NCBI GenBank assembly: GCA_905178155.1
Contig: CAJINV010000024.1
Coordinates: 243,964 to 307,963, forward strand
Direction of reading: 5' to 3'
Length of the DNA stretch: 64,000 bases
Source: Amoebophrya sp. A120
Taxonomy: Eukaryota; Protista; Dinoflagellata
The notes beneath the pieces were generated by a model. It was given only the letters and a program-made list of their open reading frames with translations. It ran no database searches and had not been told where the DNA came from. The first letter of the stretch is position 1. The number at the start of each line of letters is the position of its first letter. Made by a program: the position numbers and the translations under genes. Shown here one piece after another: positions 17,032-61,704 of the stretch.

Positions 17032-17032
17032 G

Positions 17033-29037: not shown

Positions 29038-29095
<58 letters not shown>

Positions 29096-33863: not shown

Positions 33864-36800
33864 ATGACGCTCCTTTTCCTGCCACCCCGCATCCGCAGCA
33901 GGAGCTGTTGTGCGCGGCGCGTTTTCAACATCTTCACCCTCCTGTTCATCTTCCGGCAGCTTCTTGTAACCCGTTCTGGCGGCGCAGAAGAACGACCCGC
34001 AGTGGCTGCGTCGTACGCAAAATTAGCTGCTGCTGCAAGCATTATCTTCCCAACAGCGGAAGGGAGTATTGTTCCTGCGGAGCAACGGCGTGGTGTCGCA
34101 GAAGGTGTTGATGCTCCTCCCCCACTGCACCCGTTCTCCGCCCACATCTGCATCAAAGGCCCGCATTGCCTGTTTCGGAACGTCTGTCTGGAACAAAATA
34201 AATCCACCGCGGTGCCGGCCGCCGGGGAAAGTGCAGGCCGTCCGGATGGTGCGCCAAACGACGCTGCTGCTCTCAAGCTGCTCTATTTTCGATCGCCGAA
34301 AGAACAGCTGACCCCGTGGGACCACTACAATCTGGAGCATCTGCAGCTCCAGCCGGGGACCTCCCTCTCGCAGCTGAATACCGAGGTCACCGGCTACGCA
34401 CGGGTGGATCACCAGAAAGGGATTGCGAGTGGAGTGGTCCAGGATAACCTGCCGGTTTATCAAACAGAAAAGATGTTGAACTGCAATACAGCAGCACTAT
34501 GTAACATACTAGCGGACGTTCGTTGTTTTTGTCATTCACCATACCGCTGTGCAGAACAGCAACAGCTACAGCACTACTTCCTGCCCGCTCGTCGCTCAAA
34601 AAAGAAATAGTTTGTTCGTTGTACAGCCATCGCGTGATCTATGCTGACTTGTTTCCAATTTTTTTCCCCCCCATACGGTCGTGGTGGTGCCACCCCCTGA
34701 TTCTACCTCCGACGACGGTCGCAGTTTCTTCGACAGAATCACCTCCCCAGGATATCCTGAGTAAAAACGTACCCACACCATAGTCAAGATGGGAAACCGG
34801 CTAGACAAATCCACAAGTTTTGGCTGTTTTGCATGACAAATTTGGATTCGTAGTGTAGTGCTGTTTGAGCTAGCTCAGCAGCATCACAGATCTAGCATAC
34901 CATGCTGATTGGAGCATGACAAATTGCAAAACACGACTAGAAAATGCTTCTCATGAGGCTCCGCATGAGAAACATTTTCAGCATGCAGATTTGCATTACA
35001 ACTCTGGTGTGGGTACGTTTTTACTCAGGATACAGGAGCTGCCCTCTTCACCCCCGGCACGGCGATTCTTCTTCGCCCCTTCAAAAACCTACTATCAAAT
35101 GCAAAAATGTCTAGGTCTGGGAGATTCTGAGACTTGTCATGCACGTTTTGCATGAGCCATGATGTCTGTGATGCATGCCGTAGCATCACAGACTTTTCGA
35201 CGGATTCTTGACGCCTATTTCGCATGACAAATGCCCTATCCGCGTAGCAAAAATTACATTCCCTTTGCTACTCATGCAATACAAATGTTTTTGGAATCCA
35301 AATGCAGCATCACAAGTTGCATTCTTCAAGACCCAGACAGTTTTGCATTTCATACCTACTCGAGCGGCACTACGGTAACCTCTTCCTCGACGAAGCGCTA
35401 TCGGTGTTCCGTATCTTGGACCAATGGGGCCTGCTGCCGAGGAGCCGTGACGCTGATATTAGCCGAGACAACCACGCGAAAATGACCGAGGAAGCGGAGC
35501 ATGCTGAGGCCGGCGCGGGACAAACCACTGCGGTCTTCGACCATGATGGTGAGGTTTTTCCCACATCGACACGTTCACCTCAACTGCAGCTTGATCGTCG
35601 GAAAGAGGAAAATCCGACCGCGAAGAACGACGTTTCTGTCCTGCTGGACGTGTCTGCGACGACGGAAGAGGAACTCAGCGTGCGGAAGCAGCTGTTTTTG
35701 CGACGCGAGGACAAGTATCCATCTCGCAAATATGTCTGGGTCTGGAACGTGGTAACTTGTCATGCAAAGTCTGAAACGTGCAAAAATCTGTATTGCATGA
35801 GCGGCAAACCTATGCACTGTTCTAAACGCGGTCATATTTGCAATGCATAAGAAGGCTCAACGTCGATCTAGTACTACTTCTACTTTTCTTCGGGTCCCGC
35901 TCGCGGAGTCTGTACGACTTACAGGGACTACTACCAGCGGTGGTCTGGGATTGCATATCAAATGCAAAAGTGTCTGGGTCTGGAAGAATGCAAGATTTGT
36001 CATGCATATTTCTCATGACGCATTTTAGTCTGTGATGTATGCCCTAGCATTACAGATTTTTAGAACCCTGCCTGATGCACCTTCCGCATGAGAAGTGCCC
36101 TGTCCGTGTAGCACACATTATACCCCTCTTGCTGGTCATGCAATACAAATTTTTTTAGAGTCCAAGAACAGCATGACAAGTTGCAAACTTCTGGACCCAG
36201 ACATTTTTGCAGTTGATATTGCACTCTTCTTCGCAACAAACAACCCCGCCCTCCGCCACCACGACCTACGAGTGCTTCGAGCGACTCGTGACCGGCTGGG
36301 AGGGCCTGGGGTTCTCGCGCGACGAGGAGGTCGACGAGTTATCGAAAGCAAACATGTCTGGGTCTGGAAAACTGCCAGGTTTGTGTTGCATATTCTCCAT
36401 CAGCCACGAAGCCTGTAATGCATGGCCTAGTATCACAGATTTTTAGAAGGCTTTGTGATGCTAATTCCGCATGAGAGATAAGCACCCAATCCACGTGCAA
36501 CAAACTGGCCTCGTCTTGCTGGTCATGCAACACAGATTTGTTTAGAATCCAGAGACAGCATCACAAGTTGGATCCTTCCAGACCCAGACATTTTTGCATT
36601 TGATACGAGTTTCTGCGCATCAAAAAGCGCGACGGCAGCGAGGAGTACTTGAACTCGCTGTTCAACTCGGACGACGGCAACGCCATGTGGTGGAGAGACG
36701 TGCTGGACTCGGCGCCGGACAAAGCGGCCCTCGCCGCCGCCTATGCAATGCAAAAGTGTCGTACTCGTAGCAAATGCATTTATGCATTACAAATCTCGTT

Positions 36801-39800
36801 CTATTTGAAAATCAGCATTACAAATTCAAATTGTAGCGCTGGGCTAATTTGTGATGCAATTTATACTAGTACGATACGGTTTTTGCAGTTCATATCGCCC
36901 CGCCGGCCGCGCCGTTTGAGTGGAAAAATCACGGGTTGCTAAACGAAAAGAAATATCAAATGCAAAAATGTCTGGGTCTGGGAGAATGCAACTTGTCATG
37001 CTGAAGCTGAATCATACAAAAATCTGTGTTGCATGATTACCAAAAGTCGTCCAGTTTTGACCAAGTCGGGAGGGGGTTTCTCATGCAGGATAGGCATGAG
37101 AGAGGTCGCGCAGAATCTTCCCTGCTAGGTCCTGCATTCCAGAACTCATGGGTCATGGAAAAGCTGCATGACAAATCGCTCACTCTTCCAGACCCAGACG
37201 TTTTTACATTTGATAAGAAAGCGACGTACTACTTCGGTGGCAAGGAGACGCGGGACAGGCTGGCGCTCGATCACAGTGCAGCCGAGAAAGTAGACCTGCC
37301 GCTGCCGCGTGGCAAAAACGCAGGACATTCAGAGGACGGGTACTTACAGTAGAGCTAGAAGACGCCTTCGTTCTGTTACAACTGCGGGATTGCATCGAGA
37401 ATGTGAATGCAATTTTTTTATCGTATTGTAAGTATCAATCCCTTCGCTTCGCTCCTCGATTGCACGAAGGTTGGATTATTTCAAGGTGAAAACTTTTTCC
37501 ACTACAAATACAATGCAGTCAGGATAAAAAGGATAGTGGGCTGCCACGACACCTGCCTAGCCCTAGCAGCGCAGCCACAACGAGGGTGGACGAAAATAAA
37601 ATCGCCAGCTACACCAACCGGCTTTTTTTCGACGACAACATGGATGTCGTGCTGCACGAAGTCCCCCGGGAGGTGCCGAAAGAGGCCGGCGTCATTTTCC
37701 CAGCCGACGGCGGACCACAAACAACGGCGACAGTTTTAGCGCGTGGCGGAAAACCCGCCACTGCGGTAGAGGAAAACGAAAACCGCTACTACACGACGAC
37801 ACGAAAGAACGAAAACAGCGATCATCCACCAGCAGCTGAATTCGAAGATAAAATCGCTGCGACGTGGTCAACTACTGCACGTTCCTCCGCCGAAGAAGCT
37901 ACAACTTTGCAGCCGATCATTCGACACCGCACTTCTCTTCGTGAAAATCTAGTGAACTACGCCCCGTTCCGGGTGGTGCAGCACGGTATGCATTGCAAAA
38001 ATACCGTACTCGTATTGCAGTCATGCATTACAAATTTTTTTCTGGACGTAAATCCGCATTACAAATTTTATCTGTCATGCGGAGGAAATTTGCAATGCAT
38101 TTATACGAGTGCGATACTTTTGCACAGGATACACGGGGGCAATAAGGTGCCAGACCTGCGGAAATTCCGCGACTTCGTCGTCGGACGGCGGGCGATATCA
38201 ACTGTAAAAATGTCTGGGTCTGGAAGATTCTGACACTTGTCATGCACGTTTTGCATGAGCCATGATGTCTGTAATGCACACCCTAGCAATACAGATTTTT
38301 AGAGGGCTTCTTGATGCGTATTCCGCATGACAAATGCCTTCTCAGCGTAGCAAGAATTGCATTTCCTTTGGTACTCATGCAATACAGACTTTTTTGGAAT
38401 CCAAATGCAGCATCACAAGTTGCATTCTTCCAGACCCAGACATTTTTACATTTGATAGGCGCGGCACGAAAAACCAGGAGACACTGCTACTGCTGCCGCA
38501 GTAGATGACGGCGCTTCTAGGACGATAGATCACGAACTTTCAACATCTCAACCGCGACGAACCCTACAAGTGCTGGTCTCTGTCGTCGGCGGCGAAAACC
38601 AGATCGGGTCGGTGACAAAATGGAGTGATAGTACCTACAACAGGTGGGGCGATGCAACGTCAAGTGGGGATCTAGTACCTCACCGTGCGAACGCGACGAC
38701 TTCATCTGCCCAAGAGGACTTCCGAGGATTCCTCGCGGAGGCTCTCCAGCTGGCACTGGAGGAGGAGCCAGGTGGTCCATCTGAAAAAAACGACGGAAAC
38801 TACTCGGCACGATCGCGCCGTCAAGAAAAATCGGAGTACAACGCGAGGTCTAGTACTTCCAGGACGGCTACGACAGCCCGGGAAGCCGCCAACAGTGCGA
38901 CCTCATTCCGCATCAGAGTCGTGGACTCTTGCGACTTCCTCGCGGAGGACAGAGGCACAGGGAGCGCAGGAGCCTCCGGGGCACAAAACGACGAAAATAT
39001 AGAACACAGGCCTACTGCCTCTATCGGACCGCTGTCGGAGGGTGCTACAACAGAGCGTATGATCGACTTCTCAGGCACAGAAGTACTATCGTCTTCGGAA
39101 TCTTCACATGCGACGGCGCAAAAGTCGTGGGAAAGCCAGTTCTCGTCTGGGACGGCAGAACAGCGGTTCTCGGGTTCTGTGGATGTGCTCGTCAACCTAG
39201 ACGCGGAATTCTCTTCCGAAGGAGCCTCCGCGCAGTGTGCGATACAACGGGAGTCGTCACCACTAGAGCCGGAAAGGAGTCGTGCCGCCGCTCTGACGGC
39301 CGCAGAGGTTCTGGCGCAACAGCTTCTGGTACCAAAGGTGCAGCGTATTTTCTTGTGGCTCGCCACGTCCCTCCCAGGCGAGGCCGGGGCTTTGTATGAA
39401 TATTGAATAAAGCGGCGTTTTTTATACCACGTATGCGGTACTATTTTTCGGTCCCCGGCCCCACGACTCTTTGCTCGATTAGAAGTCTTCTTGCAAGCTC
39501 GCAACCCTGTGAGTGCTTCGTGCAATTCCTGAATTCAAGCACTACTACCGTAGCAGTGCTTCACGCCGCAAAAAGCTGCAAAGCGGCTTGCCGAGCTGGT
39601 TCTTCTACCAGCAAAAAACATTTTTGTATTTTTCTATATGGCCTAGATATTTTTTATCGGAGGAACGTTGAGCACCCGCCACTGTGTATTTATTTACATT
39701 TGATACAAGCTGCTCAAAGACGGGGCCCTGGCTATCCTGCCCTACGTCAGTCTGGAGCCGCCGGAACAGGTGCGAGGAAGTCGACTGTTCCAACGGAACT

Positions 39801-41798
39801 ACAAAGGACCACCGCCCGCGACAGATGGGCACAGAGAGATGGATCACGCCAACTCCCTCCCACCACCAGGACCACCCGAAAATGCCGTGTTCTATGACTA
39901 CAGCGTCAATCGGGAGTCGGAGCATAAAATGCTGCCGCCACCGCTATGGCCTGCTCAACCGTTACAGTCTCAAATCGGTTACCATAGAATCTGGAATTGG
40001 TCTTGCATAATGAGCATGACAGACTCGCAGACCACTCCACTTTCTGCAACACAAATTTCGGCAGATTGTAGTGCGGTTTGGGGCTCCGGGACTTGTCATG
40101 CGCAGTCCTATGCGACTTGGCTAGATTATGCACTTCTTGCATCACAGATTTCCAAATTCTATTGTAACGCTTGGGATTGCAACGTTTGAGCAGGTCATAA
40201 CCGCAAGGAAAGTCGTTCGTGGTGGCGAACTGGCTCGCGCACAAAGGCCGCCTGCGTATTATGGATTGCAAAATTGTCGGGGTCTGGAAGAGTACGAGGT
40301 TTGTCATGCATATTTCTCATGACTCATGATTCCTGTAATGCATGACCTAGCATCACAGATTTTTAGAAGGCTTCCTGATGCCTATTCCGCATGACAAATG
40401 CGCTCCCCGCGTAGCACAAACGGGACGCCTCTTGCCGGTCATGCAATACAAATCTTTTTAGAATCCAAACACAGCATCACAAGTTGCGACCTTCCAGAGA
40501 CCCAGACATATTTGCATTTTATACGTATCGTGCAGCTGCCACTGTATCTAGCGGCGTCGGGTGGAAATTATGGATTGTAAAAATGTCTGGGTCTGGAAGA
40601 ATGCGAGATTTGTCATGCATATTTCGGATCACGCAAATGGCGTCTGATGCAGGCAAAAGCATCACAGGTTTTGATCACGCCTCATGATGCCTGTCCCGCA
40701 TGAGAAACTTCCTACTTGCGTGCCAACAAATGGACAGCTTTTGGCGCTCATGCAACACAAATTTTTGTGTGTTCCAGAGTTTGCATCACAAGTTCCAACC
40801 CTTCCATACCCAGACATTTTTACATTTGATAGAAATGCGCCGACGAGGACAGCGAGTGGACCGCGGGACAACGACAAACGCAAAGCGAGGCAAAGTCCTC
40901 CTTCCCGCGAAAAGAACGAGGAAATAATGCGTGGCGTAACAACTACTGGAACCTCGTCTACGCAGACGAAGCCACGAGCGGTACAACTACCCGATCATCA
41001 CGCAGCACCGTCAGAACAACTCCTCCCGTGGTCAGAGGAGTCTGGAGAGGGGGCCAGTAACGAACTGCGCCTCGCCTACACGACCGAGTTCTCCGCGCAC
41101 GAGCAGCTGCTGAATGCACGCGGGTTGCTGCAAAAAATGCAAGTCGAGGACCAATCGGCGGTCGCGCAGGAACTACACCACGACGAGCAGGGAGTCATAC
41201 TAGAGCCTGCTAGTACATCAAAAGCAGATGTGGACCGCCACGAAGATGCCACACCGCGGGCAGCCGAAAGGAAACGTGCCCTAGAAGTAGAGCATCAAGA
41301 AATACCGCTGGTGCATTGCCCACGAGATCTTCATGCTGGCAAGAAAAACGTCGGAGCGGAATGCGCTGCGTCGATCTGGGCGCGGCAATATCAACTGCAA
41401 AAATGTCTGGGTCTGGAAGAGCGTAAACTTGTCATGTAGGTTTTCCATGACCCATGGCCATGAGGTCTGGAATGCGGGACCTAGCATGACAGACTCTGTG
41501 AGGTCTCAGTCATGCCTATCCTGAATGAGAAACTGCCACCCGACTTGGTCGAAAGTGGACAGTTTTTGGCGCTCATGCAACACAGATTTTTGCATGACTC
41601 GGATTCAGCATGACAAGTTGCGACCGTCCAGGCCCAGACACTTTTGCAATCCATAGGCAAGGCTGCGTCACGAGACCGCAAGACTACACCAGGTATTACG
41701 CATCATTATATGTAGATGTTTTTATTTTCCTGGCCTTACTTTGTTGCAATTCAGTGCCGAACTTTACCCCCAACGGTATGATAAGCGCGCAGGTGTGA
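33864..41798 (+). CDS. Glycosyltransferase family 61-like type II membrane protein (gene A), split by at least 14 TAT..ATA introns
   Basis: Hand-spliced exons 33864-34457, 34681-34752, 35038-35092, 35360-35715, 35855-35955, 36224-36339, 36611-36741, 36900-36953 and 37221-about 37349 are all in frame. These are followed by about 37586-37986, 38137-38195, 38463-about 39345, about 39711-39944, 40205-40259, 40529-40568, 40837-41388 and 41661 onward. Motifs: CLFRNVC, HYGNLFLDEALSVFRIL, CFERLVTG, LRKFRDFV, GALAILPY; N-terminal hydrophobic anchor. Junctions near 37350-37580 (stop at 37350) and 39345-39705 and the 3' end are unresolved. Confidence 0.72.
34458..34675. mobile_element. Degenerate introner-derived intron
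   Basis: TATCAAAC...CCATA, DR CGGTT/CGGTC; removal joins DNLPV to VVVPPPD in frame; inverted repeat largely eroded. Confidence 0.75.
34753..35032. mobile_element. Introner, family C
   Basis: TATCCTGAGTAAAAACGTACCCACACCA...TGGTGTGGGTACGTTTTTACTCAGGATA (perfect 28-bp TIR), DR CAGGA. Confidence 0.95.
35093..35354. mobile_element. Introner, family A
   Basis: DR CCTAC; join gives PFKNLLERHYGN. Confidence 0.93.
35716..35849. mobile_element. Introner, family A, internally deleted (134 bp)
   Basis: TATCC...TGCATA, DR ACAAG/AGAAG; join gives REDKAQRR. Confidence 0.8.
35956..36218. mobile_element. Introner, family A
   Basis: DR TTGCA; join gives GLGLHSSSQQ. Confidence 0.93.
36340..36605. mobile_element. 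Introner, family A
   Basis: DR CGAGT; join gives EVDEFLRIK. Confidence 0.93.
36742..36894. mobile_element. Introner, family B
   Basis: TATGCAATGCAAAAGTGTCGTACTCGTA...TACTAGTACGATACGGTTTTTGCAGTTCATA; DR CCGCC/TCGCC; empty paralog at about 23465-23480. Confidence 0.9.
36954..37215. mobile_element. Introner, family A (opposite orientation to 35093)
   Basis: DR AGAAA; join gives NEKKATYYFGG; empty paralog at about 23520-23540. Confidence 0.93.
37987..38131. mobile_element. Introner, family B
   Basis: DR CACGG; join gives VQHGGNKVPDLRKFRDF; empty paralog at about 25860-25884. Confidence 0.92.
38196..38457. mobile_element. Introner, family A
   Basis: DR GGCGA/GGCGC; join gives GRRARHEKPG, in frame with ORF 38570. 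Confidence 0.92.
39945..40199. mobile_element. Introner, family G
   Basis: TATGGCCTGCTCAACCGTTAC...GCAACGTTTGAGCAGGTCATA; DR ACCGC; join gives MLPPPQGKSF. Confidence 0.88.
40260..40523. mobile_element. Introner, family A
   Basis: DR CGTAT; join gives GRLRIVQLP. Confidence 0.92.
40569..40831. mobile_element. Introner, family A
   Basis: DR GAAAT; join gives SGGNAPTR. Confidence 0.92.
41389..41655. mobile_element. Introner, family A
   Basis: DR GGCAA; join gives WARQGCVTR. Confidence 0.92.
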
Positions 41799-43301: not shown

Positions 43302-43629
43302 TATCAAGTTGAAAAATCCCCCCTCCCCCTATCAAAACGAAGGCTCTGATGCTGGATTTGCGTGCACAAATCAAATTTCTATAGCTGGAGAGCACTACAG
43401 GGCAAATATCAAGCCAGAGCAGAGAGGTTTTGGGTTAGGCACTTAGCATGAGAAACGTCTGTGCTCTAGCTCTAGGCCCAACAGCATCACAAACCGCCTG
43501 CATGGTGCGCCGGTGCCTGTGGGGTTGCCTGCTTGCAACATAGGCGGAATTTGTGGTCGCGAATCAGCAACACAAACTTTCGGAGACGTACCTTGTCAAT
43601 ATGGGGAGGGGGGATTTTTCCTCGCAAAA
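43302..43629. mobile_element. Introner, family D, eroded right end
   Basis: TATCAAGTTGAAAAATCCCCCCTCCCC...GGGGAGGGGGGATTTTTCCTCGCAAAA; DR AAACA/AAACC. Confidence 0.75.
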
Positions 43630-43652
43630 AAACCGCAGACCAACTAATGGAC

Positions 43653-47104: not shown

Positions 47105-50100
47105 GGGTGGGGCGCCGCTTATCATCCTGATACCACGAAAAGGAGCTTCCTGCACAACCAGCTGCGGTTCCGGCCGCCGAATAAGATTATGAGTTGCAAA
47201 AGTATCGGCTACTAGTATAGATTGCAATACAAAAAATTGGGTCACGCAGCGTTGTAGATTAAATTTGTAATGCGGATTTCCCTGAACAACTAGATTTGTA
47301 ATGCATAAGGCCTGAACAACTAGACTTCTCATGCTCGGGAAATTTGTAATGCGTTTGTACGAGTACGATACTTCTGCAATGCATAGGAAGTCCAGCAAGT
47401 CCATGAAACTGTCAAAGTAGGCACCATTTTCATTTTCGCTATATTCTTCAGAATCGGCAAAATCAGAGTCAGAACTGCCGCTGCTGAAGTCCTCTAAGTA
47501 ATCGTGTATTTCCCCATCTCGTACCTCTACCTGTTCTGGCGCCCCCTTCGCGTCGTGGTTCCCGTCAGTGTCAACACCAGCTTTGGGCTCTCCAGCGTCG
47601 TCACCAGCACGACCTTTCTCTTCCTCATTCGCCGCAGGAGCTACAGTGGCTTCCTTCATAATATCCTTCGCAGCCTTCTTCTCCGCATCCTTTTTCGCCT
47701 TTCTCTCAGCGGTTCTAGCCTTTTTAGCCGCATTTTTTTTCTCTTCCATTTCCCGCTCCAGGAGGTCCTCTGCCGCTGCTTCTTGCAATTTCTTGTCTTT
47801 GAAATCCAAAAACTCTTCGAAATGAAGCTTCAACTGTTTCATTTTCGGAATCTTCTCGGCTTCGAACTCTTCCCTCTGTTCCATCAATTGCTTCAAACCG
47901 TCGAGCGATAGAGGTTTGATCCTTTGGAACTGCTTATCGGTAACCTTGTTCTTCAGCATGACATGAAGCGCTAGTTTCTGCGGAGGCGGCTTGCGTAGCA
48001 AAGCGAAAAGTCGCTTCTTCTCCTGCTCGACTTGTTTTCTCTTCTCTTCTTTCTCGCTTCGTAACGCGATCTGACTGGCGGTTTTTTCTTTGTCTGAGGA
48101 ATCTTCACCTTCGGACGAGCGACCATTTTCATCATCATCTCCATCGCGGTTGTCCCTCTTGCGGGCGACTTTGGAGCCGATTTCTAGTAGTTCTTGTTCC
48201 ACGCTCTGTGGTTTATTTTGTCCTTCATCTCCGTGGTCTTCATCTTCTTTTTCGTCTTCGCTGCTTCCTGGCTGGACTCGCTCTTGCTCGATTTTTGAAG
48301 TCGTGGCCCTCTGGCAGCTCCCGGAGGTGGTCGTCGTGGTCACCCCGACCTGGTCCTCTATTTGCCACCAATTCTTCTCGTAATTCCATTTCCACTCCAC
48401 GCCGTCTGGTAAAAGCGCATTGTCTTCTCCGACATTTTTCCCAGTACCTGCGTGTTCCTGAAACTCCGAGGACCGCCACGCCGCATGGTTTTCGGAAACG
48501 ACGAGTTCCTCCGTTGGCCTTGGCTGTTTGTGTAGTTTTTCCACTCTCGCGGAGCGGTTCTTGTCAGCGGATCGTCGTCATCCGAGTCGCAATCAGAGAC
48601 GAAAAAGTCGTGACCGCGTGAAGGGTGGCGGTTGTTGACAACGGGCGGATCAACATTCAGGTTGTTCGCCTGCTCGTCCATCTTCGACGCTAGATTGTGC
48701 TGCTCCACAGAGTCGCCAGCCATGGTGGCGCCAAGACTTAAATTCAATTTGAATTTGATATCAATGGATCAGGAACTCGTTTTTGAAATTCAAATCTGTG
48801 ATGGGATGAATCGCGATGTCCAATGAGAATGACCACGCTGTGCTTTTTACAACATCTTTACCTAATCCTAGCACATAGACATCATACGATAGCTGCGGAA
48901 GCTGCCCTCATATAATCTTTTCTTCTTTTGTAGTTGTTTGTCCATTACTACTACATCTTCATCCGCTAGGCTAAAAAGAAGGAGAAAATGTAATGCGGAT
49001 TTCCCTGAACAACTAGATTTGTAATGCATAACTGCAAATTTAGTACGAGTTGTCGATCCTTTTGCACTGCATAAAGATCCGCTGGTTTCCCGGACTAGTC
49101 GGGTTCAGATCTACAACTGGGTCGCCTGCGTCTCCCGTGCAGCAGCACATGCGAGGCTGTAGTACTACGTCTCGTCCTGCGGGCAGAACCGCCGAGGGAG
49201 ATGAGCCTGCTCGTCGTGAGGCAAGCTCACGAAGAGCTATGAGTGTGCCTTCTGGTGGTCTTCCCGGAGATAGTGGTACAACGAGAACGAGGAGTCGGAG
49301 GAGCTCCCCCAGAGGCAAAAAACCATCTTCGGGCTGCGGCACCGTGCTGACGCTGCTGTCGACGGCGCGGAGACTGAAATCGGCGGCGGAAGTGGAAGAG
49401 GAAAGTTCTGAGAAGGCACACAGAACTTCTACACATGCAACTGCTGTGGCCACCAAAGCAGGAAAGAGCCACGCAGAAGTGCTGCCACCCAAGATGAACG
49501 GGCACCAAAGCAGTGACCGGTATGAGTACGGTCTGCTGATTCGGCGGTTATGCAATGCAAAAGCATCGCACTAGTATAAATTGCAGTACAAATTAGCCCA
49601 GCCTACAAATTGAATTTGTAATGCTGGTTTACCTTGAGACAGAGATCGCCGCAAGGTCGCAGCGCGGGGACTCTGTCCCCGCGCCATGACCTTGTTTGTG
49701 ATGCATAAACGCGATTGCTACGAGTGCGATACTTTTGCACAGGATAGCGGTGGAGGCTGGACGAGGGTGACGAGAAGAGCAAATCCTTCCCCTCCGGGTA
49801 TGCCCTGGAAGAGTATCTGCAGGAGGAGCCGCGCCGAAGATCATCGGAAACATCCGAGCGGAGCGTAAGTGGACAATGTGACACGACGCAGGAGGCAGCA
49901 GATGACGTCACGGGCCTCCTGCCCGAGAAGCATGGTCACAGTAGAAGCCACGACGATGATCATATCGTCGCAGGCAGCGGTAAAATAACGCAACGAAACA
50001 CGGAAGAAGGCGAAGATCACGCCTCCCTAGCGGAGATCACGATAGCCAGAAATGATCCGCCGTACAGGGCCACGAGCGCGAAGATGACAGGAGGTCGGGG

Positions 50101-53100
50101 AAAGCCAAAACCAAAACGCCACGAAGTACCAGAGATCGATGCTGGTCGTGCAAGACCAATCGACAGGGAAGAGGACGCTGCCACACTGCTCGACGCGGAG
50201 GAGGAACAGCGCTTCCTCGAGGGAGAGGAGGACGAGCATGGTTCGGAGACCGAGCGTGATCATGCGCAAAACCAGAAGTATATGTCACAAATGGAAATAT
50301 ATCAGGCGCGCCTTTATAAAGAAAATCGAAATGGCCCGTCAAATTCACCCACAAATGGCAATGCAAATAGCGCACAGATGAGCTACAGCAGAACACCACA
50401 AGCCAGAGATAACCGAGCAGACGGAGGTGCAGAAAAAAGTGGGCGCTCGGAGTCAGGTGGCCATGGCCAGGCTGCGGCTGGAACGACGAACAGATGCGAA
50501 TCTACTTCGCAGAACGACGAGGAGGAGGAGGAGACCATGCTACAACGCAGTAGCCAGTCGGTGGCCTTCATCCCGTTCGGAGCGCGACTACAAGAACGAG
50601 GACAGCATCAACGACAGACACAGATAACCGAAGATGCTGCGGTCGTCGATACAAAAACCGAAGCTGCAGCTGCTGCTTCTGAAAAAACCGCATCTGTCGA
50701 GGAAGTCGCGATCCCCATGGCGCGGGTCGGGTTTGCGGCGGACGTGGCGACGAAAATCGCAAGGCTAATCGCCAAACACGCAGGTGAGCGGGAAAAGGAC
50801 GGGGTGCTCAACTGGATCGGGAATGAAAGCCGCGACCAGGCAAATCCCCCGACAACTGGAGATCATGGTCGGAGAGGTGCGGAAAAATATAGTCGTGGTG
50901 CGAAGGACGACAAGAGTTCGAAGAACGCGGAACACGAAGATCCGGAGGCGGGTGAGGCTGCGACCGGAGGTGCAGCTTTGCCTCGTGGTAGGAAGAACGA
51001 CCCGATCGGGCAGGAGGACAACGCCTTTGGTACACCGGAGCAAGAAAATGACCGCCGGGAGCACCACCACGGCGACGTAGTAGACCCCGAAAAATCATAC
51101 TCTTCGTCCTTCCACTGCCTCAAAGGCCCGAACTGCCTGTTCCGTAATGTCTGCCTGAAGGGATTCACCTACGACTCTAGCATATACATTGCAAAAGTAC
51201 TATGACTACCGTGCAACTTCGTGCGTGAATTGCAATACAAATTTCATTTCCAAATAAAAAGAAGAAACGCAAATTGTGATGCTGAGTCGCATCGGGCTAC
51301 CAATCTGTCATGCATGATTGCAATTACTACGTAGGCGGTACTAGGAGTACTTTTGCACTGGATACACCAACCCACTCGACGATTTCCGATCCAGAATACG
51401 GGAGGTGCATTTCGAGTACTTTTTGCCCGAAGATGACACGACTTCCGCTGAAGTGGACGATGTATCCTGTGCAAAAGTATCGCACTCGTATAAATGCAAT
51501 ACAAATTTCCTCAGCATGAGAAATAAAATTTGTAATGCAGATTTTCGTTGGAAACAAGATTTGTAATGCAAGACTTGCATTTGTACGAGTACGATACTTT
51601 TGCAAAGGATACGATGACCACTCCCACGACGATTGGGAGACCCACAGCGATGCGGATACACGGTACATTTTTCAAAATCTGTATCTGATGCCAAATTATC
51701 CAAACATCATTCCCAATCTCCGCCACCTGGTGGCGAAAGCGCGGTTTCACCGGGCGCGTGGTGCTCCCGGGAAGCGGCGGCTCCAAGAACGGGGCAAGAG
51801 GGCGCTAGGTTCAGGACGACATCCAGATGAAGTTGTGCATCCTCGCGGTGCTCTCGCCGATTCCTCGAAAAGCACTCCCAAAACCGCCGTCTTCGTGCAG
51901 CGTGCCGGCGGGTTCACACACAACGTCGGCCACGTGATTCTTGACGAGATTCTGACGGTGTTTCAGGCCATGCTGAAGCACGATAGAATCGGAAGCGACG
52001 ATCGGGAGATCCAGATATCAAATGCAAAAATGTCTGGATGTCTAGCAACTTGTGTTGCTGATACTTGAATTGCAAACTTGCTGCTTGTACTGCATAACAG
52101 CATGAGAAATTTCGCGGGGCTTATTCCAAATTCATTCGTATTTAGCATGACAAAGTACCATATTCCGCACGACAAAAAAACTGGCCAATGGTATTCATGC
52201 ATTACAGATCTTTTTGTCCTTGAAGTCCTGCATCACAAATCCAGGTCCAGACATATTTGCAGTGCATACCAGATTCTACTGCACGAAAAGCAGTCCATGA
52301 ACATCAATGCGTTCGCGCAGCTGCTCGCGACCACGCCCGGTATTGTGAGGAAAAATGTCCCCACCCCAGAGTTGTCATGCAAGCCTGCATGCGAAAAACG
52401 TTTCTCATGCGGAGCCCCATGAGAAGCATTTTCTATTCGTCATTGGGAATTTGTGATGCTAGAATCATCATAGTATTGTGGATCTGTGATGCTTCTCCTG
52501 AATCAGCTAAACAGGATTACACTACGGAGACAAACTTGTCATGCGAAATAACCAAATCTGGTGGATTTGTCTACGCTGATTTCGCATCTTGACTCTGGTG
52601 TGGGGACGTTTTTACTCAGGATACCCGGGAAGACTACTTCATCTACACCCGCAGGTGGTTTTACCGGCGCTTCTACCGCTGCTGGTGGAACTTCCAACGT
52701 TTTCGACTGGACGGACATCGATTTGACCACCGAAGTGGATTTTTCTGCACCCGCTTTGAAATCGTCGGAAATAAAAGTTCACCGTTGCTTTCCGGAGCTC
52801 ATCCTCGGTTGGGCCCGGTTCCAGGGCTACTGGCACTTAGGGTTTGCCGAGCTGCAGCAGTACTTTCTGCTTCCAAGACACAGCATCATATGACAGTGCA
52901 CAACTTCCCATCGTCCCCCTCATTTGTATAGCATGAACGCCAATACAAGCATTAGCAAGAGTGCCGGCTTTGCATGACAACGTTTGCACTGGAGTGTAGT
53001 CCTATTTTGGCGGCTACCAGCAGAACTTGTCATGCATAAGAGTGCCAAGAGGAAAAGAGTGGATTGAGTATTTTGCATGAGAAATGAGGGGGAACGGGAG

Positions 53101-55879
53101 TTCTTGTGCACTGTCACACATCACCGCGGGCATCCAGAAGTACCAGGACCTGCTGAAATTCAAGGAGTACGTATCGTGAGGAAAAAACTGTGTAAGTGTA
53201 AATCTGTGATGCAGAACATGCAACAGAGTTACGCCTGTCATGCCAGACAGCCACGCAGTCCTCTTTTCATGTGTGTTTTCCCTAATCAACCACGCATGAC
53301 AGGTTTTCTCTGTCATGTGGAGCAAATTTGTGATGCTGTCAGCCAAAGAAAGTTACACTAACACAGTTTTTTTCTTGGATATTACGTGTGGCGGAGGTTT
53401 GGGATTGCGAAGAGGGAGAACATATCCTGAGTAAAAACGTCTCCTCTCGATTCCTTTCTGAAAATTCGAAATTTCTCTGTGCTTTAAATTTGGTCTTTTC
53501 CAGTACATAAACACCCCAGAGTTGTCATGCAAATCTACATGCTGAAAATGTTTCTCATGCGGAGCTCCATGAGAAGCATTTTCTAGTCGTGTTTTTCAAT
53601 TTGTCATGCTCCAATCAGCATGGTAAGCTAGATCTGTGATGCTGCTGAGCTAGCTCAAACAGCACTACACTACGAATCCAAATTTGTCATGCAAAACAGC
53701 CAAAACTTGCGGATTTGTCTAGCCGGTTCCCCATCCTGCCTCTGGTGTGAGTACGTTTTTACTCAGGATAGAACAAAGAACGGGATTATGCCGGCGCGGG
53801 CGGGGTACTGGTTCCTGGTGCAGCATCTTCGACAAGAGCTAGTGCGCCCCCTACTTCCGTGCTGTACAACATTACCATCGTGCTGAAAAACCGGCATTCC
53901 GCCGAAAACTGCTGCGTCATGACCAACGCAGACCAACTGAAACGGTATTTGCTGCGAAGGTTCTTCAGGAGTAAGAGTTCAGGAGCCACCAGCACCGCTG
54001 CAGGACCAACTACATTCCGCGAGGACACGGAAAGAATGAAAGATGTTGCACCTGTTCCTACGTCGCATGGCTTTCAAGTTGAAGAATTGTCTGGGCTGCA
54101 ACTACAGCGCGCAAGCATCGACCAAGTGCTGCTGCTCAACTGGTCGGATTTGAAGGGCAGCTGGCAGAAGCAAGTGGAGGTTATGGCGTACACGGATATT
54201 CTGCTATCCTTCCCCGGCGCGGACGTCTGCAGCTCGGTGTTTATGCCCACAGTGAGTGGCTTTATTCTCCCCGATCGACTGCTGGGCTGGGCGCCAGAGG
54301 AAAAAGACACGCTCGAGCTGGTGCGGCAAGACGTCAAGCAGGAGAAGCGGAAGCGAGGTCTGAGCGAACAGAGCCACGAGGTGCTGCAAGTGGACGCCTT
54401 TGGAAAAATCGTCGTGAGCAGTAGCGGCGGCGGCGAGAATTCGCAAGGTCGTCGTAGTGCTCTGCATCAGAAGCTCAATCTCGAACAGCAGGTGAAGCTG
54501 TTTTACCAGCGCCGGTTTCACCGCTTTTTGAAGGTGACCGCGACCTCCAGTGCAGTTGAAGAGGAACAATTTGGGGAGGATAGTGGGCAGTTTCCTGCGG
54601 GTAGTCCAGGCGAGAGCGCAGGATCCCCCACTTCCAGCGTCGTCGACTACATGCGGCAGCATTTGCAGTATCAAATGCAAATATGTCTGGGTCTGGAAGA
54701 TTGCAACTTGTCATGCTAAGTCTGAATCAGGCAAAAGACTGTGTTGCATGATTGCCAAAAGCTGTGCACTTTTGACCTAATCGAGAGGCAGTTTCTCATG
54801 CAGGATAAGCATTGGAAAGGTAAAGGTTATTTCGCAGAATCTGTCATGCTATGTCCTGCATACCACACTTCATGGGTTATGGAAAATCTGCATCACAAAT
54901 CTAACAATCTTCCAGACCCAGACACTTTTGCAATCCATATGCAGCAGCACGAGGTGAATTCCCACGGAATCTCGGCCAAGGGTTGGGAGGGCCTTGGCTT
55001 CATCGACATGGTCTTCACGCACCGGCTACCAAATGTAAAAATGTCTGGGTCTGGAAGAATGCAACTTGTCATGCTAAATCTGAAGCATCCATAAATGTGT
55101 GTTGCATGATAGTACCAAAAGTCGTCCAGTTTTGACCAAGTCGGGAGGGTGTTTCTCATGCAGGATGGGCATGAGAGATATAATCGCCCGGAATCTGTCA
55201 TGCTAGGTCCTGCATTCCAGACCTCATGGGTCATGGAAAAGCTGCATGACAAATCGCGAATTCTTCCAGACCCAGACATTTTTACATTTGATACCGGCCC
55301 TACCTCAACATCAAGCTGATGCCCCAGTACGTGGCGGGCGTCACGTATGAAAGTGCACAACATCCTGTCCCCCTCATTTGTCATGCAAATTGCCAAATCC
55401 AAGCTGTGCATTTTGGCAGTGTCTGCATGACAAGTCCTGGTACTTAGCCCAAACAGCACTGCAATCCAGTGTGAATTTGTCATGCAAAACCGGCACTCTT
55501 GCTGATGCTTGTCTTGCCGTTCATGCTATACAAATGAGGGGGAGGGGGAGTTGTGCACTGTCATATCACGAACACCAGCGTGGCGCGGCCGACGTTCGTT
55601 TTGTCGCCGCGAAAATCGGTCTTCGAGCAGGTGCCCTCGCCGCGGGACCGGCACAGTACTGCGGAGTTCGACAACGTCATGTACCGGAAAGCCAACCCGT
55701 CCGCGGTGATTCCCCCGGAGTTTCCGCACGAGGAATTTTTCCGCTACGAATCGGTCATCAACGGCAGCATCTTCTGGCCGAAGAACACGGTGATCCGAAA
55801 TGTCCATCAGGGCGGCTTCCAGAAAATCGGCGACCTCGTGGAGAGTCTGCTGGACTACTTTCAGCGGATCAAGGGCTGA
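47105..55879 (+). CDS. Glycosyltransferase family 61-like protein (gene B), 12 TAT..ATA-type introns, 5' end unresolved
   Basis: Hand-spliced in-frame exons: about 47105-47187, 49079-49548, 49752-51182, 51370-51462, 51617-52015, 52274-52340, 52629-52888, 53124-53171, 53387-53422, 53776-54668, 54945-55026, 55299-55345, 55571-55879. Motifs: CLFRNVCL, HNVGHVILDEILTVF, RCFPELILGW, LLKFKEYVW, ITIVLKNR..MTNADQL, QVEVMAYTDILLSFPGA..SVFMP. Confidence 0.82.
47188..49073. mobile_element. Composite family-B introner (1886 bp) carrying a captured gene fragment
   Basis: Left end TATGAGTTGCAAAAGTATCG and right end CGATCCTTTTGCACTGCATA share DR AAGAT. A 43-bp internal segment is duplicated at about 47266 and 48989. 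Removal joins RPPNK to IRWFPG in frame. Confidence 0.8.
47386..48723 (-). pseudogene. Captured 5' part of a charged coiled-coil protein gene, frameshifted
   Basis: ATG at 48723 (MAGDSVEQ...) shifts near 48550 into the long K/E-rich frame of ORF 47072-48544. That frame runs into a family-B terminus at 47385 whose flank (GGAAG) has no matching partner here. Confidence 0.65.
49549..49746. mobile_element. Introner, family B
   Basis: DR GCGGT; empty paralog at about 27400-27420. Confidence 0.92.
51183..51364. mobile_element. Introner, family B-like
   Basis: TATACATTGCAAAAGTACT...AGTACTTTTGCACTGGATA; DR TAGCA/CACCA; join gives DSSNPLDDFR. Confidence 0.85.
51463..51611. mobile_element. Introner, family B
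   Basis: DR CGATG; join gives EVDDDHSH. Confidence 0.93.
52016..52268. mobile_element. Introner, family A-like
   Basis: DR CCAGA; join gives REIQILLHE. Confidence 0.9.
52341..52623. mobile_element. Introner, family C
   Basis: DR CCCGG; join gives ATTPGKTT. Confidence 0.92.
52889..53118. mobile_element. Introner, family E
   Basis: TATGACAGTGCACAA...TTGTGCACTGTCACA (ends ACA); DR CATCA; join gives HSITAGIQKY. Confidence 0.9.
53172..53381. mobile_element. Introner, family F
   Basis: TATCGTGAGGAAAAAACTGTGT...ACACAGTTTTTTTCTTGGATA; DR GTACG/TTACG; join gives FKEYVWRRFG. Confidence 0.88.
53423..53770. mobile_element. Introner, family C (reverse complement of 34753 over most of its length)
   Basis: DR GAACA; join gives KRENKERDY. 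Confidence 0.93.
54669..54939. mobile_element. Introner, family A
   Basis: DR TGCAG; join gives QHLQQHEV. Confidence 0.93.
55027..55293. mobile_element. Introner, family A (starts TAC)
   Basis: DR CCGGC; join gives FTHRPYLNI. Confidence 0.92.
55346..55565. mobile_element. Introner, family E (opposite orientation to 52889)
   Basis: DR TCACG; join gives AGVTNTSV. Confidence 0.92.
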
Positions 55880-56808: not shown

Positions 56809-59479
56809 ATGGCAACACCAGGTTCTGCGGATCATGCGCAGTCCTCGAGGCCGTTGGAGGTTTCTCCTGCGTCCGAACGGCAGATGTTGATCGAAGCTCG
56901 CAAAAAATTGCAAAAGCAGGTCACAGACATGGAGCAGCACGCGGAAAATCAGCGGGGCCGCTTCAACGCGTACCAGCAACTGCACGCGAAACGCCTCGAC
57001 TGGCTGATATCAACTGTAAAAGTGTCTGGGTCTGGAAACTTGTGATGCTGGGTGGCGCATGATTGAAGCGCTTCCAATGGCAGCCAAGCATGACAAGTTT
57101 TTGAGAGGCCTTCTGATGCCTAGCATGCATGACAAATTGCGTTTTTGCATGACAAAGAAAGCTTCTCTTTTGCTGCTTATGCAAGACAGATTTTCCAGGA
57201 ATGCATGACACGCATTACAAGTTCCACTTTTCCAGACCCAGACATTTTTACATTTGATAGCTGACGGCGTTTTTCAAGACCGACATGGTGCTGCTCGACA
57301 TATGGCACAACTGGAACGCGCAGTTCGACAAGATTGTTGGATTAGTGGTAGCCCTCGACAAGTCGTCGGAAGAACAACCGCAAGAACAGGCGGAAGAAGT
57401 AGTAGTACCAGACGAAGATAGGGCGTATTTGAATCAGATGACTGCAGGATCTTCTTCATCTGCAACAATGCGAACAAACCCACACGCGGCCAGTTTGATG
57501 TTCCGGCGTGAAGGTGGATATAATAAGAAGAACGTCTGCGATTTATTGCGGGGTAAAATACTGACCACTCCCCGGAAGATTTTCGCGGAGTTGCGGATGG
57601 GAATGGAAGAGTCGTTGCACCAATCCACGACACAGCAAGAACTTGGCGCATCTTCAACTGCGGTCACGACCAAGACAGTAGACCGACTCTACCCCGCCGA
57701 CAACATTTGGCGGCTCGACAACTGGCTGACCGTCGACGCCCCGGAGGCTTCGTCGAAGTTGCATTCGGCGATACAAAAAACCACCGACATTTGGCTCAAG
57801 GAAAAAGGTCCCGTGTTCTGGGAAAAGTGGACTGCGTTCCAGAAGGCTGCTCAGGGCCTTCTGGGCAAGGCCCGGGAGTTGCAAACTGCGGAACGCGCTC
57901 TGCTGGACGTCGAAGTGCGGGGCCGCAAGTACGCTGAAATTCTACAACTTCCAGAAGATGATCCCTACGAAGTGCAGCGCGCGCTCGAGAAGGCGCTCGG
58001 AGAGAAATCGCGAGCGCTGCGGGACGCGCAGTGGAAAAGTGACAAGCACATCATGTTGCTCGAGGAGTCTTTGCAGCGGCGCGGCAAAGAGGTGGAAAAG
58101 TACGCTTTGTTGGAGGTTAACATGCAGTACGAACTGCAGGCCGCCGCCGCCAAGGTTTCGGCGTACGAGCAAGAATTACGGACGCACAGACGCAACGCTG
58201 AAGCCGTGCGACAACGCGACCTGGACGTGGAGGAGTTCGAGGTGACGAAGCTCCGGAAGTCAGCCTTGGAAGACGACCTAGCCCGGGAGAATGACCGGAA
58301 AAATGTGCTCGTGGACAAGTTGCACGACTCGGAGCAGGAGAAGAAAATGCTGGAGCAGCGGGTCGCCGAGTTAACACGAAAATTGGAGCGAAAAGTATGA
58401 AGTACAAATATCGATCTGGGTCTGGAAGATGGATGCAATAAACCTGTCATGCAGAATTTTTATGCGCGACGATGTCTGGAATTATGCAGGACGAAGCATG
58501 ACAGACTCCGCGAGGTCTCCGTCTCTATCATGCCTAGTATCCTGCATGAGAAACTCCCTCTCATGTTGGTCAAAAAAAGGCAACCTTTGGTGATCACGCA
58601 AGATGACAGATTTTTGTGTGACCCACTACAGGACGCATACCAAGTTCCATCCATCCAGACCGAGACATATTTGCGATGCATAAAAAGCCAAGCTCGACGA
58701 CGTTGACGCGCATTTGGAAAGCATAGGCTTCGGTCAGTGCGAAATCTGCTGTGACGCGTACGTGGCACAAGGTATGACGGTGGCACGTGGTCCAAACAAG
58801 TTGTAGCCTGCTGCGGTCCAACGCAAACGGATTAGATGGCTTTGTTGCATGATTTTTGTTTTTTATGCAGATCTTCAGCACAGAATGAACTTTCAGTGTC
58901 AGCAATAACCACCTGGCATGTTGAATGAATGTAGGTAGCCAAAATCCGTTCGCAAAAGGCACTACAGCTTGTCACGAGTAATTTTTCCTCGGCACGACGC
59001 ACGTGAACCAACGGCCGATGTGCTTCTCCTGCGGCCACGGAGCGTGTGCGAGCTGCGTGGACCTTCTGCGGGGGTGCGGTCGGGATCTGTGCCCAAAGTG
59101 CCGCGAGCCGGGGGTACTGCAGGATGCAGTCGTGAATTACGGACTGGAGGCCGCGCTAGAAACCCTGGGGCGGTGCGCCGTCCCTGCACCTCCGTCGCGC
59201 AGTGCCGAGTTGGCGACGCCGACCTTGCCCATGGGGCGTGGCCAGCTGCTACGAACCTTTGCTCGGAGATTGTGTTGCCGACAGACGCTGAATGTTCTCG
59301 CCCTGATAGTGGGTTGGGTGTGGGACCATGCCTGTGCCTTATGGTGTTGTTTCTGGCTCGCTGCTGTTTCTGGCTCGTCAGCGATGTGTTGTTTCTGGCT
59401 CTCGGTGTTGTTTCTGGCTTTCGCTGAATTGTTTGCTTTAAGTACCCTGACTATAATTCTTGAAGCGGTCACGGTTTAA
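56809..59479 (+). CDS. Coiled-coil RING-finger protein (putative E3 ligase) with hydrophobic C-terminus
   Basis: Exons 56809-57007, 57265-58395, 58688-about 58772 and about 58992-59479. RING is CEICCD...CFSCGHGACASC...CPKCR, split by the third intron, whose 3' edge is approximate. Confidence 0.8.
57008..57259. mobile_element. Introner, family A
   Basis: DR GCTGA; join gives LDWLTAFFKTDM. Confidence 0.93.
58396..58682. mobile_element. Introner, family A (diverged)
   Basis: DR AAAAG; join gives LERKAKLDD. Confidence 0.88.
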
Positions 59480-60444
59480 AAATAAATACCAAAATCTGTT
59501 AAAGCACTCGAAAGCAAAGCTTATTGAAGAAATTTTCATTGTCGATCATGATTTGGACACCTACAAGTACAAGTACGTGTTGGTTTCTATTGAAGGCGAA
59601 AAACTATATAGTTATGGAGTATACCCTTGCAGCAGTTGTAAACATAGTGCTGCACTCGATTGTGTACGATAGGCCAGGACGGCTTTTGCAGTTGTTTCAA
59701 GTAGAATCACCGTGCCAAAAACCAAAATGAAGATGTGACTTTCAAGAGCTCCCTCGATACAGCTCAAGGAAAACTACCAACCAAGAAGAAGTTGCTCACT
59801 TCGTATGGAGGTAAGCCGAGGTGCCAAATCCAACGCTTTGAGCATCACTTTTTGCACATTCTTTTTCTTGCTGACGAGAAAGTTGTGATCTTGGGCTCAC
59901 TGCCGAAGAGGAGATGTTTTTGAAAGGGAAAAACCGATACTGAACTGCCGAAAAAATGCGCTACCACGCATCTCATGTAACACCTGTGTGCCAGCACCTA
60001 GCATCCAATATTACGTCGCTAATCGGTTCGTTTTTCACTTCTTCATTGAGCGACGTTTTTGATGCGAGCGAGGAATACACACAAACCGTGTTGCTATTGT
60101 TAGGAGCGATCCGAACCGAGCGTCGAGAGTGACCGCTAATTCGACGAATTGACGTCAATTTTTGCAATTCATCGGCCAAAAACTTCGCGTTGCACAATTC
60201 GTTGAATCGCGTTAGGTAGATTCCTTTCTTGGAGATGGTTTTGTGCTTTTGCGTTTTCAGGATAAAGTATTTATTGCGCTAGTCCAATAATTCTTGACTG
60301 CTTAGTACCTCTACCTACAAGAACTTTATTTTTTTTTTGGCGATTCCGTTTTCGTTTTCGAGCTCTAGCTCTACTTTTCTGCCAACAAACCCGAGCTGTT
60401 GTGTTTTTGCAGCAGGAAGGACACTAAGCCTCTTCTCATCCAAA

Positions 60445-61704
60445 ATGCCGAGCAACCCTAAGCTAGACTTCGGGGCCCTGGGAGCAATCCCCCTGGACGA
60501 GGAGTCCTGTGTGATTTCGCGCACGGCGTTGCAACAGCTGCAGGACGAGAACAAGGAATTGCACGGGCTGCTCCGATGCTGGAATCCGCGGGCTGCTCCG
60601 AATGCTCGCTGCGAGCATGCTGAGAAGCAGAGGCTGGAGTTACTGAATACGCACCTCCAGGTGCGTATTCTGCAGAAATACATGCAGGAATACAAACGCG
60701 AGTCGGAGGTTCTGCAGATACGAGTGGTCGATGAGAGAAAGAAGTATAGCCTTCTTCTGCGGGAGAAGGAAACGGAAATGAAGAACCTCCGCGAACGTCA
60801 CGATCGGCTGATCCAGAGTAATTACCAGGTCGTAGACACGTTGCGGAAAACGGAACGAGCGCTGCGGGAGCTGTGCGAAGACGGAGTGCTCATCGCAACA
60901 CGCCGGAAAGACGTACAGAGGCAGAAGACGAAGGCCCTCGAAAAGGAGATTGCGGCGTTAAAGCAAAAACTCGGGGAGCAAGAACAACAACGCACAACAA
61001 CCCGGTGCAGCCGGAGGTGCAGGACACGAAATCCAGCCGCTTTGTCCAGTGGTGCGACACCCGAGATCGATGCGGACGAGCCGTACCCGAAACAAGCTGG
61101 CGGTGTCTACGAGGACTGCTGCGAGGACTACGAGGCTCGAGCCGTACCCGAAACAAGCTGGCGGTGGACCGCCAGGCTGGAGCACCAGCCTGGCGGTGTC
61201 TGCGCGTTGTGCTGCGAGGACTACGAGGCCCAGCGTATGCTCAAAACAAACTTTTCTGGTCTGCTGGCATTGTAAAGTGGCGGATCGGTGGCGTGGAAGC
61301 GCATGAGCTAGCATTTACACAGGCACAAAAATTACTTGATACTTTTGATTATGACTGCAACACTGCCGATGTTGTGACATGTTCCTCGATCGTTCTGTGG
61401 TGCTCGCGCTCCTGACCGTTCCCATTTCTACCGCAGCTGGCATGCCGAATCGCTCTTGTGTTTGTGCATAAAGAACGAAAGCAAGCGCCCGATGGTGTTT
61501 TGCTGCGGCCACGGGGCCGGCAAGGGGTGCGTCGATTACCTTTGCGACCTGAACCGATGGAACTGTCCGGTGTGCAGGAAACCTGATGCCCTACTGCATG
61601 CAGTTCCGTGCTTCGTCCTCGAGGAGGCTATGGGTTCTGATGTTCGAGTCCCTCCAGCCCTCCAGCACTCCCCGGACCCACCCCCCGTGATTCGAGGCCT
61701 TTAG
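60445..61704 (+). CDS. Second coiled-coil RING-like protein (paralog; one RING Cys replaced)
   Basis: Exons 60445-61235 and 61476-61704; CALCCED...CCGHGAGKGC...CPVCR; internal duplication at about 61078-61230. Confidence 0.72.
61236..61470. mobile_element. Old introner-derived intron
   Basis: TATGCTCAAAAC...GTTTGTGCATA; degenerate DR CAGCG/AAGAA; removing the element plus 5 nt is in frame. Confidence 0.7.

Follow-up and report, generated by a model that had tools for sequence, protein, structure and literature searches.

Genes of the dinoflagellate Amoebophrya sp. A120 are interrupted by introners, short non-coding transposons with inverted-repeat ends that generally start with TAT, end with ATA and are flanked by a short direct repeat. 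We analyzed a stretch of 64,000 nucleotides (nt) of its genome (contig CAJINV010000024.1, positions 243,964 to 307,963 of the forward strand), hereafter called the window, in which four genes containing such elements (genes 1 to 4) lie between positions 33864 and 61704. The evidence supports that the elements are removed together with one copy of their 5-bp repeat at the RNA level, i.e., by RNA splicing. We propose that the sites at which the pre-mRNA is cut lie at a set distance from each end of the element, and that a modified spliceosome is the most likely agent. The class of elements was already known, and our analysis confirms that they are introns; the cutting rule is new and testable, and comes from few junctions, which give thin but consistent evidence.

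Results

Elements in four genes of the window

The window was screened with a scan blind to the identity of the element ends, which required a perfect 5-bp direct repeat, complementary end triplets and at least 14 matches in the 20 positions of the inverted repeat. All 19 matches obtained had TAT...ATA ends. At a threshold of 12/20, TAT...ATA was present in 21 of 202 matches, whereas each of 20 Markov-shuffled windows gave 0 or 1. Manual curation of region 33864-61704 resulted in 32 intervening sequences: 30 elements, one old intron starting with G-TAT and one canonical GT-AG intron (Table 1). An earlier reading of this DNA from its letters alone (the sequence-only reading) had counted about 30 elements in four genes, which agrees with our number, and the repeats that it named are all present. 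Perfect 5-bp repeats flank 22 of the 30 elements, and five elements have repeats with one mismatch and one with two; the two others, at 61236 and 39330, are decayed and still have TAY...ATA ends. The elements start with TAT or TAC and end with ATA or ACA, a TAC start being found twice (55027 and 39330) rather than once as had been noted, and their lengths, previously given as mostly 134-350 bp, had to be corrected to 134-376 bp plus a single element of 1886 bp. The boundaries of element 34458 were set by the reading frame and those of element 39330 from a likely-RNA contig (see below).

Deletion of the elements plus 5 nt results in open frames of 1336, 1354, 630 and 339 amino acids for genes 1 to 4, respectively, in accordance with the earlier claim that deletion of an element plus one repeat copy restores the frame; for short genes, the frame by itself cannot separate the removal of 5 nt from that of 2 or 8 nt. 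The claim that the elements lack consistent GT-AG ends also stands, yet one of the 30 elements, the decayed one at 39329-39709, has GT-AG ends at the register inferred below, and in some register GC-AG ends are possible for two elements and AT-AC ends for two. The GT61 and RING motifs that had been described correspond to weak matches (E 0.036 and 0.006, respectively) below the Pfam curated cut-offs.

Elements are retained in DNA contigs and skipped in likely-RNA contigs

We analyzed contigs of run X1, a DNA run, and of runs X3-X6, which we guess to be RNA. The X3-X6 evidence is limited to contigs, which come from two samples of a single study and in which rare forms are dropped. The joints seen number 15 of 611 with the DNA run included, where the table is swamped by other copies, and 15 of 17 in the gene 1 set.

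The coverage of X1 is even along the window, and the listed X1 contigs, at a depth of 21-30, span whole elements without gaps (50421-51486 and 58541-62000) or borders between elements and exons. X3 gives no coverage in intergenic bins. One X6 contig of 3732 nt spans all 16 junctions of gene 1 in joined form, of which 14 are listed as joints that skip the element plus 5 nt, and two, including that of the GT-AG intron, follow from the record coordinates. For genes 2 and 3, two X3 contigs provide two junctions by adjacent pieces and 12 by exon sums, and sums of 89, 410, 129 and 89 nt match exactly. The sequence-only reading had preferred RNA splicing to DNA excision and had suggested inspecting the RNA junctions; the likely-RNA contigs indeed skip the element plus 5 nt, whereas the DNA contigs retain the elements.

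The register of the cut

Where the two copies of a repeat differ, the mRNA tells from which copy each base is derived. Elements 34458 (X6) and 38196 (X3, X5 and X6) contribute base 5 of their right copy, which places the cut at or before base 4. Bases 1, 2 and 3 come from the left copy at 36742, 35716 and 51183, respectively, which places the cut at or after base 3, and the junction of 39330 is compatible with base 3 or base 4 only. Hence, if one register holds, the RNA contigs leave a cut after base 3 or 4 of the repeat.

Three observations point to base 4. The cut of the old intron at 58772 lies exactly one base upstream of TAT; a cut after base 4 makes the decayed element 39330 a GT-AG intron (39329-39709); and P0002, a database entry named as an Amoebophrya sp. 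A120 protein and 100% identical to the gene 4 product, fits only a cut after base 4 at 61236, i.e., one of six registers. The right-copy origin of base 5, the GT-AG ends at 39329-39709 and the register of P0002 had been expected beforehand. The gene 4 joint is not among the likely-RNA contig joints listed, and the register there is taken from P0002; if P0002 derives from the annotation, transcript alignments underlie it. One register accommodates all eight informative junctions, without a contradicting case. From these few damaged copies we infer that there is probably a single register, one base before TAT and four bases after ATA, corresponding to introns of the form N-UAU...AUA-NNNN.

In Table S4 of PMC7789003 (cited here, like the other papers, from parts of the source), all nine top A120 non-canonical pairs start with N-T. 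These pairs agree with the register but were not counted, because a donor preference of the aligner could cause them. In the same table, the nine top non-canonical pairs of strain A25 start with TT and its inverted repeats with TTA, which hints at a fixed 5' register of its own.

A 5-bp target duplication

A pattern scan of one other assembly yielded at least 138 loci (409 kb), labelled L001-L138; the figures given below for other loci cover those listed. The same families are present there, with copies up to 97.9% identical among the matches listed. When elements were detected without regard to repeats, a perfect 5-bp repeat was found for 217 of 312 elements and one with a single mismatch for 32, while exact repeats of 3, 4 and 6 bp were found for 4, 2 and 0, respectively. 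The 48 elements with three to five mismatches look mostly like cases in which the ends were miscalled inside the inverted repeat. Detection blind to the ends gave TAT...ATA for 204 of 219 elements. No target preference was detected in 202 oriented elements, with base 5 of the repeat (A 61, C 43, G 65, T 33) resembling the other positions. In the window, paralogs at 23-28 kb provide five empty sites, three of which fit best, ungapped, at 5 nt. These results show that the target duplication is 5 bp, not a range of 3-5 bp, and that insertion occurs in any sequence and in either orientation. A 3-bp repeat arises if the ends of an element are read one base too far out.

Mismatches between repeat copies in L001-L138 number 18, 13, 6, 7 and 10 at positions 1 to 5, respectively (p 0.07), with a dip beside the inferred cuts; p becomes 0.03 once six cases from the window are added after the fact. 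The 409 kb contain seven long candidate autonomous elements, of which none has been shown to be autonomous and only the one at L072 was read: at L072:476-2934, an insert of about 2.2 kb close to the left end of an element of the 262-bp family contains an open frame of 415 codons.

Signals, pairing and orientation

Signals were analyzed in 258 oriented elements out of 310 snapped ones, after exclusion of 73 unsnapped elements, 44 unoriented elements and 8 with at least three mismatches; the element strand was taken from a codon model with a leave-one-out agreement of 179/229. Of the 258 elements, 82 have a G at +1 and 21 end with AG, frequencies close to background. The two orientations of the main family are about equally represented (37 vs 36), and window elements of either orientation are spliced. 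U+2, A+3, A-5 and A-7 are fixed because the elements are so defined, and hence they do not constitute independent evidence. An A is present at positions 11-14 in 81-94% of the 258 elements, which agrees with TAT-N7-AAA, and pairing amounts to 88% at positions 8-24 and 66% at positions 4-7. All of them share the TAT, a zone of weak pairing at 4-7, a run of A at 11-14 and, further inward, a stem, and the element ends fold into long stems. The proposal of the sequence-only reading that removal is guided by the ends fits the fixed register, yet element 34458-34675 is precisely removed despite weak end pairing (-6.6 kcal/mol).

Two further ideas were not supported. The idea that decaying hairpins gain a G at +1 or an AG at the end came from the 32 intervening sequences of the window, where there was a hint that weak hairpins gain G+1 (p 0.02, or 0.06 without two old introns), which was not reproduced in the loci (p 0.47) or in a motif test (p 0.85); that the 258 elements are recognizable implies that they are young, which limits this test of decaying hairpins. 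For the idea that the terminal triplets are asymmetric or more strongly constrained, variants were too few. In L002, an oriented element, the only such case, begins with C in place of T; the G that precedes it would make a GC donor.

Features of the window

The 1886-bp element (Table 1) contains its 43-nt direct repeats at 47266-47308 and 48989-49031, and its insert contains a frameshifted antisense K/E-rich open reading frame (ORF), for which no Pfam match and no homolog were found. DNA contigs contain a variant second copy with in-frame indels. This element is likely spliced whole from the 5' leader of gene 2: in an X3 contig, 47 nt precede position 49074 and 47442-49004 is uncovered, the joint itself not being among those listed. 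A database search with the full-length gene 2 protein gave no match. The intron at 58772-59000 and the gene 4 intron occupy the same codon position, but the sequence similarity of the introns at 58773 and 61236 is not above that of shuffles (score 22, shuffled mean 20).

Table 1. Genes, introners and other introns of the window (repeats are given as left/right copy where they differ; base numbers refer to the repeat)
Feature	Positions	Strand	Repeat	Basis and remarks
Gene 1	33864..41798	+		1336 amino acids after removal of 16 introns; GT61-like motif by eye only
Element	34458..34675		CGGTT/CGGTC	Weak end pairing; joint 34452-34676
Element	34753..35032		CAGGA	Inverted repeat 20/20; X6 joint
Element	35093..35354		CCTAC	Scan, X6 joint
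Element	35716..35849		ACAAG/AGAAG	Joint 35712-35852; cut after base 2 or later
Element	35956..36218		TTGCA	Scan, X6 joint
Element	36340..36605		CGAGT	Scan, X6 joint
Element	36742..36894		CCGCC/TCGCC	Base 1 from left copy in X6; paralog near 23470 has an empty site
Element	36954..37215		AGAAA	Orientation opposite to 38196; X6 joint
Canonical GT-AG intron	37340..37518	+		GTAC start; removed in same X6 contig (record arithmetic)
Element	37987..38131		CACGG	Scan, X6 joint
Element	38196..38457		GGCGA/GGCGC	Joint 38190-38458
Decayed element TAC...ATA	39330..39705		TCTGG/CAAGC	Contig pieces 38458-39327 and 39709-39939
Element	39945..40199		ACCGC	Scan, X6 joint
Element	40260..40523		CGTAT	Scan, X6 joint
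Element	40569..40831		GAAAT	Scan, X6 joint
Element	41389..41655		GGCAA	Scan, X6 joint
1886-bp element	47188..49073		AAGAT	Short element; exact direct repeats of 43 nt bound an insert of 1.7 kb
Gene 2	49149..55879	+		1354 amino acids after removal of 11 elements; weak GT61 match; X3 contig of 4503 nt
Element	49549..49746		GCGGT	X3 contig; paralog near 27405 has a clean empty site
Element	51183..51364		TAGCA/CACCA	Cut after base 3 or later (X3 record coordinates)
Element	51463..51611		CGATG	Scan, X3 contig
Element	52016..52268		CCAGA	Scan, X3 contig, exon sum
Element	52341..52623		CCCGG	Scan, exon sum
Element TAT...ACA	52889..53118		CATCA	Relaxed scan, exon sum
Element	53172..53381		GTACG/TTACG	Manual, exon sum
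Element	53423..53770		GAACA	Scan, X3 contig
Element	54669..54939		TGCAG	Scan, X3 contig
Element TAC...ATA	55027..55293		CCGGC	Relaxed scan, exon sum
Element	55346..55565		TCACG	Scan, X3 contig
Gene 3	56809..59479	+		630 amino acids; coiled-coil-like; RING-like cysteines by eye; X3 contig of 2424 nt
Element	57008..57259		GCTGA	Scan, X3 contig
Element	58396..58682		AAAAG	Relaxed scan, X3 contig
Old GT...GC intron	58772..59000	+	None	G-TAT start; unambiguous cut one base before TAT
Gene 4	60445..61704	+		339 amino acids; weak RING match; database protein P0002
Decayed element	61236..61470		CAGCG/AAGAA	P0002 fits only a cut after base 4

Outside the four genes, an element-like stretch of 659 bp with TAT...ATA ends and without a flanking repeat is located at 43302-43960. 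Region 22100-32300 contains the broken-up paralogs of genes 1 and 2, with the empty sites and with elements of their own at 23071-23331, 25916-26168, 27085-27237 and 27454-27774. A Copia-type retroelement is present at 7024-15231, which is introner-free and has an ORF of 2735 amino acids with an RVT_2 match (E 3e-17) and weak integrase and zinc-knuckle matches. Together with an ORF of 868 amino acids without a family (17021-19627), it is enclosed by direct repeats of 833 nt (6597-7429 and 19714-20546) that are 96.9% identical and whose ends are not TG...CA as aligned. We rejected this element as mobilizer of the introners, as its flanking repeats end with neither TAT/ATA nor TG/CA as aligned. 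Four copies of a 74-nt tandem unit are present at 46556-46870 and a long AGT microsatellite at about 29035-29095. Viral contigs gave no matches to the window.

Discussion

In the mechanism that we propose, an element inserts anywhere and in either orientation, generating a 5-bp target duplication, and removal of the element plus exactly 5 nt, as seen in the contigs, restores the old exon. Of the left repeat copy, bases 1-4 would be kept, and base 5 would come from the right copy. The ends, paired by the inverted repeats, may act as a ruler replacing G+1 and AG, and the UAY at +2 to +4 may mimic the GUAY donors of the genome itself, a spliceosome without U1 then being the simplest catalyst. We prefer such a modified, U1-less spliceosome to a dedicated nuclease-ligase, at roughly even confidence, because U1 is undetected in introner-rich strains, the UAY matches the GUAC donors of the window and Fritillaria provides a precedent. 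According to parts of PMC7789003, U1 is undetected in A25 and A120, other small nuclear RNAs being present, and 15% of the canonical introns of A120 have the same repeat layout; a strain with canonical introns possesses U1 (PMC12005148).

It is possible, at less than even probability, that the register is fixed as we propose and that the hairpin is removed by a structure-specific nuclease and an RNA ligase, releasing a circle or a linear piece. The absence of G+1, AG and orientation bias, and the long stems formed by the ends, would suit such enzymes, as would the introns of Euglena, which have fixed spacers, paired ends and circular products and for which non-spliceosomal factors are favored by the authors in the parts consulted (PMC12501133). 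However, U1 loss tracks the introner-rich strains, positions +2 to +4 match the local GUAY donors, the decayed element has GT-AG ends in the same register, and a weakly paired element is still removed.

We consider it unlikely that removal is precise in length only, with a cut position that shifts inside the repeat or lies after base 3, and without a single register. Most junctions are ambiguous, the RNA bounds come from different elements, the splice sites are called variable relative to the hairpin in the parts of PMC7789003 cited, and family tables list mixed ends. All informative junctions nevertheless allow one register, and a single form is seen per listed joint, although only differences of at least 20% are listed.

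A hairpin with a direct repeat at its foot is the classic substrate for template switching by reverse transcriptase, a known class of artefact, and all our evidence comes from contigs derived from complementary DNA; that the skips arose in this way is nevertheless very improbable, as they also occur at repeats matching at 1/5, 3/5 and 0/5 positions with weak pairing, long frames appear only after removal, and 16 skips are present in one contig. Excision from DNA in some life stage, like that of the internal eliminated sequences that ciliates remove from somatic DNA at a TA boundary, would also lose the element plus one repeat copy, and might escape notice in contigs that drop rare variants and a set with 15 of 611 joints seen, but it hardly deserves credence, since DNA contigs of single-copy depth run through whole elements, the GT-AG intron is missing from the skipping contig as well, X3 does not cover intergenic bins, and the repeat is arbitrary instead of TA.

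Several points weigh against our proposal of fixed-distance removal by a modified spliceosome. The RNA nature of X3-X6, from one study and two samples, is only guessed, and raw RNA runs X9 and X10 have two reads each on the locus. The RNA alone gives base 3 or 4, a single register being assumed; in all three pointers to base 4 a G precedes TAT, so that they may be GT-donor cases or reflect annotation bias, which weakens the extension to other copies. Elements 38196 and 41389 also permit GC-AG introns with a cut after base 1. The failure of the G+1 idea removes one argument for a spliceosomal continuum, and element 34458 is removed without strong pairing and without a G. Two paralog sites (36954 and 37987) do not fit best at 5 nt, one being best at 6 and the other giving no fit, and no transposase was found in the window ORFs by Pfam and homolog searches or in the listed loci.

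About 65% of the RNA-supported introns of A120 are non-canonical. An exact border predicts the ends of the excised RNA, the possible location of a branch and the spacer changes that should break removal; it explains the harmlessness of thousands of exon insertions and suggests convergence with Euglena. Somewhat short of even confidence, the rule could be a general transposon-erasing code, by which any N-UAU...AUA-NNNN hairpin of up to at least 1.9 kb, in either orientation, would be cut out together with exactly one target duplication, without a need for G+1, AG or a strand-specific branch point.

Comparison with known systems

The closest system is that of the A120 introners themselves, described by Farhat et al. 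2021 (PMC7789003) in the same organism, with TAT inverted repeats, border repeats, repeated families and RNA-supported non-canonical junctions. The parts cited report inverted repeats of 8-20 nt (TAT followed by seven variable positions and then a run of A) and direct repeats of 3-5 nt that vary in length and position, with one example of 5 bp, and state that the border "remains unknown"; our data give a duplication of 5 bp and place the border at -1/+4. The sequence-only reading had rightly linked the elements to these introners, but underplayed that TAT inverted repeats and 5-bp repeats had been published. Mixed ends and duplications of 2-5 bp are given by Gozashti et al. 2025 (PMC12130899) among 21 of 58 A120 rows. 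In the open-licence literature, we found no paper that fixes the A120 border, subscription papers, figures and bioRxiv supplements being outside that scope; PMC13326754 and bioRxiv 2022.06.08.495308 contained nothing relevant.

The introners of Micromonas, Aureococcus, Symbiodinium and Polarella (PMC9860276, PMC11282704) are likewise non-autonomous DNA transposons turned into introns, with inverted repeats at their ends and duplicated targets, but, as described there, they carry or co-opt GT/GC and AG, of which the A120 elements need neither. Fritillaria borealis (PMC11282704, in part) has transposon-derived introns and an adapted U2 spliceosome, and prefers AG-AC and AG-AT ends, whereas the end positions of A120 are free. 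The nonconventional introns of euglenids (Nomura et al. 2025, PMC12501133; PMC11282704) are likely derived from miniature inverted-repeat transposable elements and have paired ends, no GT-AG and fixed spacers, the 5' one being shorter. In the portions of these sources used here, spacers of 3 and 5 nt around CAG...CTG are required or preferred in Euglena (PMC12501133) and a purine starts the next exon, whereas A120 has TAT...ATA ends with spacers of 1 and 4 nt, and purines are not favored; a circular product has been shown for euglenid introns, and the A120 introns are known here from contigs alone. The 3 + 5 nt of the euglenid spacers would equal an 8-bp duplication. A general transposon-erasing code in A120 would then represent a second independent origin, beside that of Euglena, of a ruler with spacers that add up to the length of the duplication.

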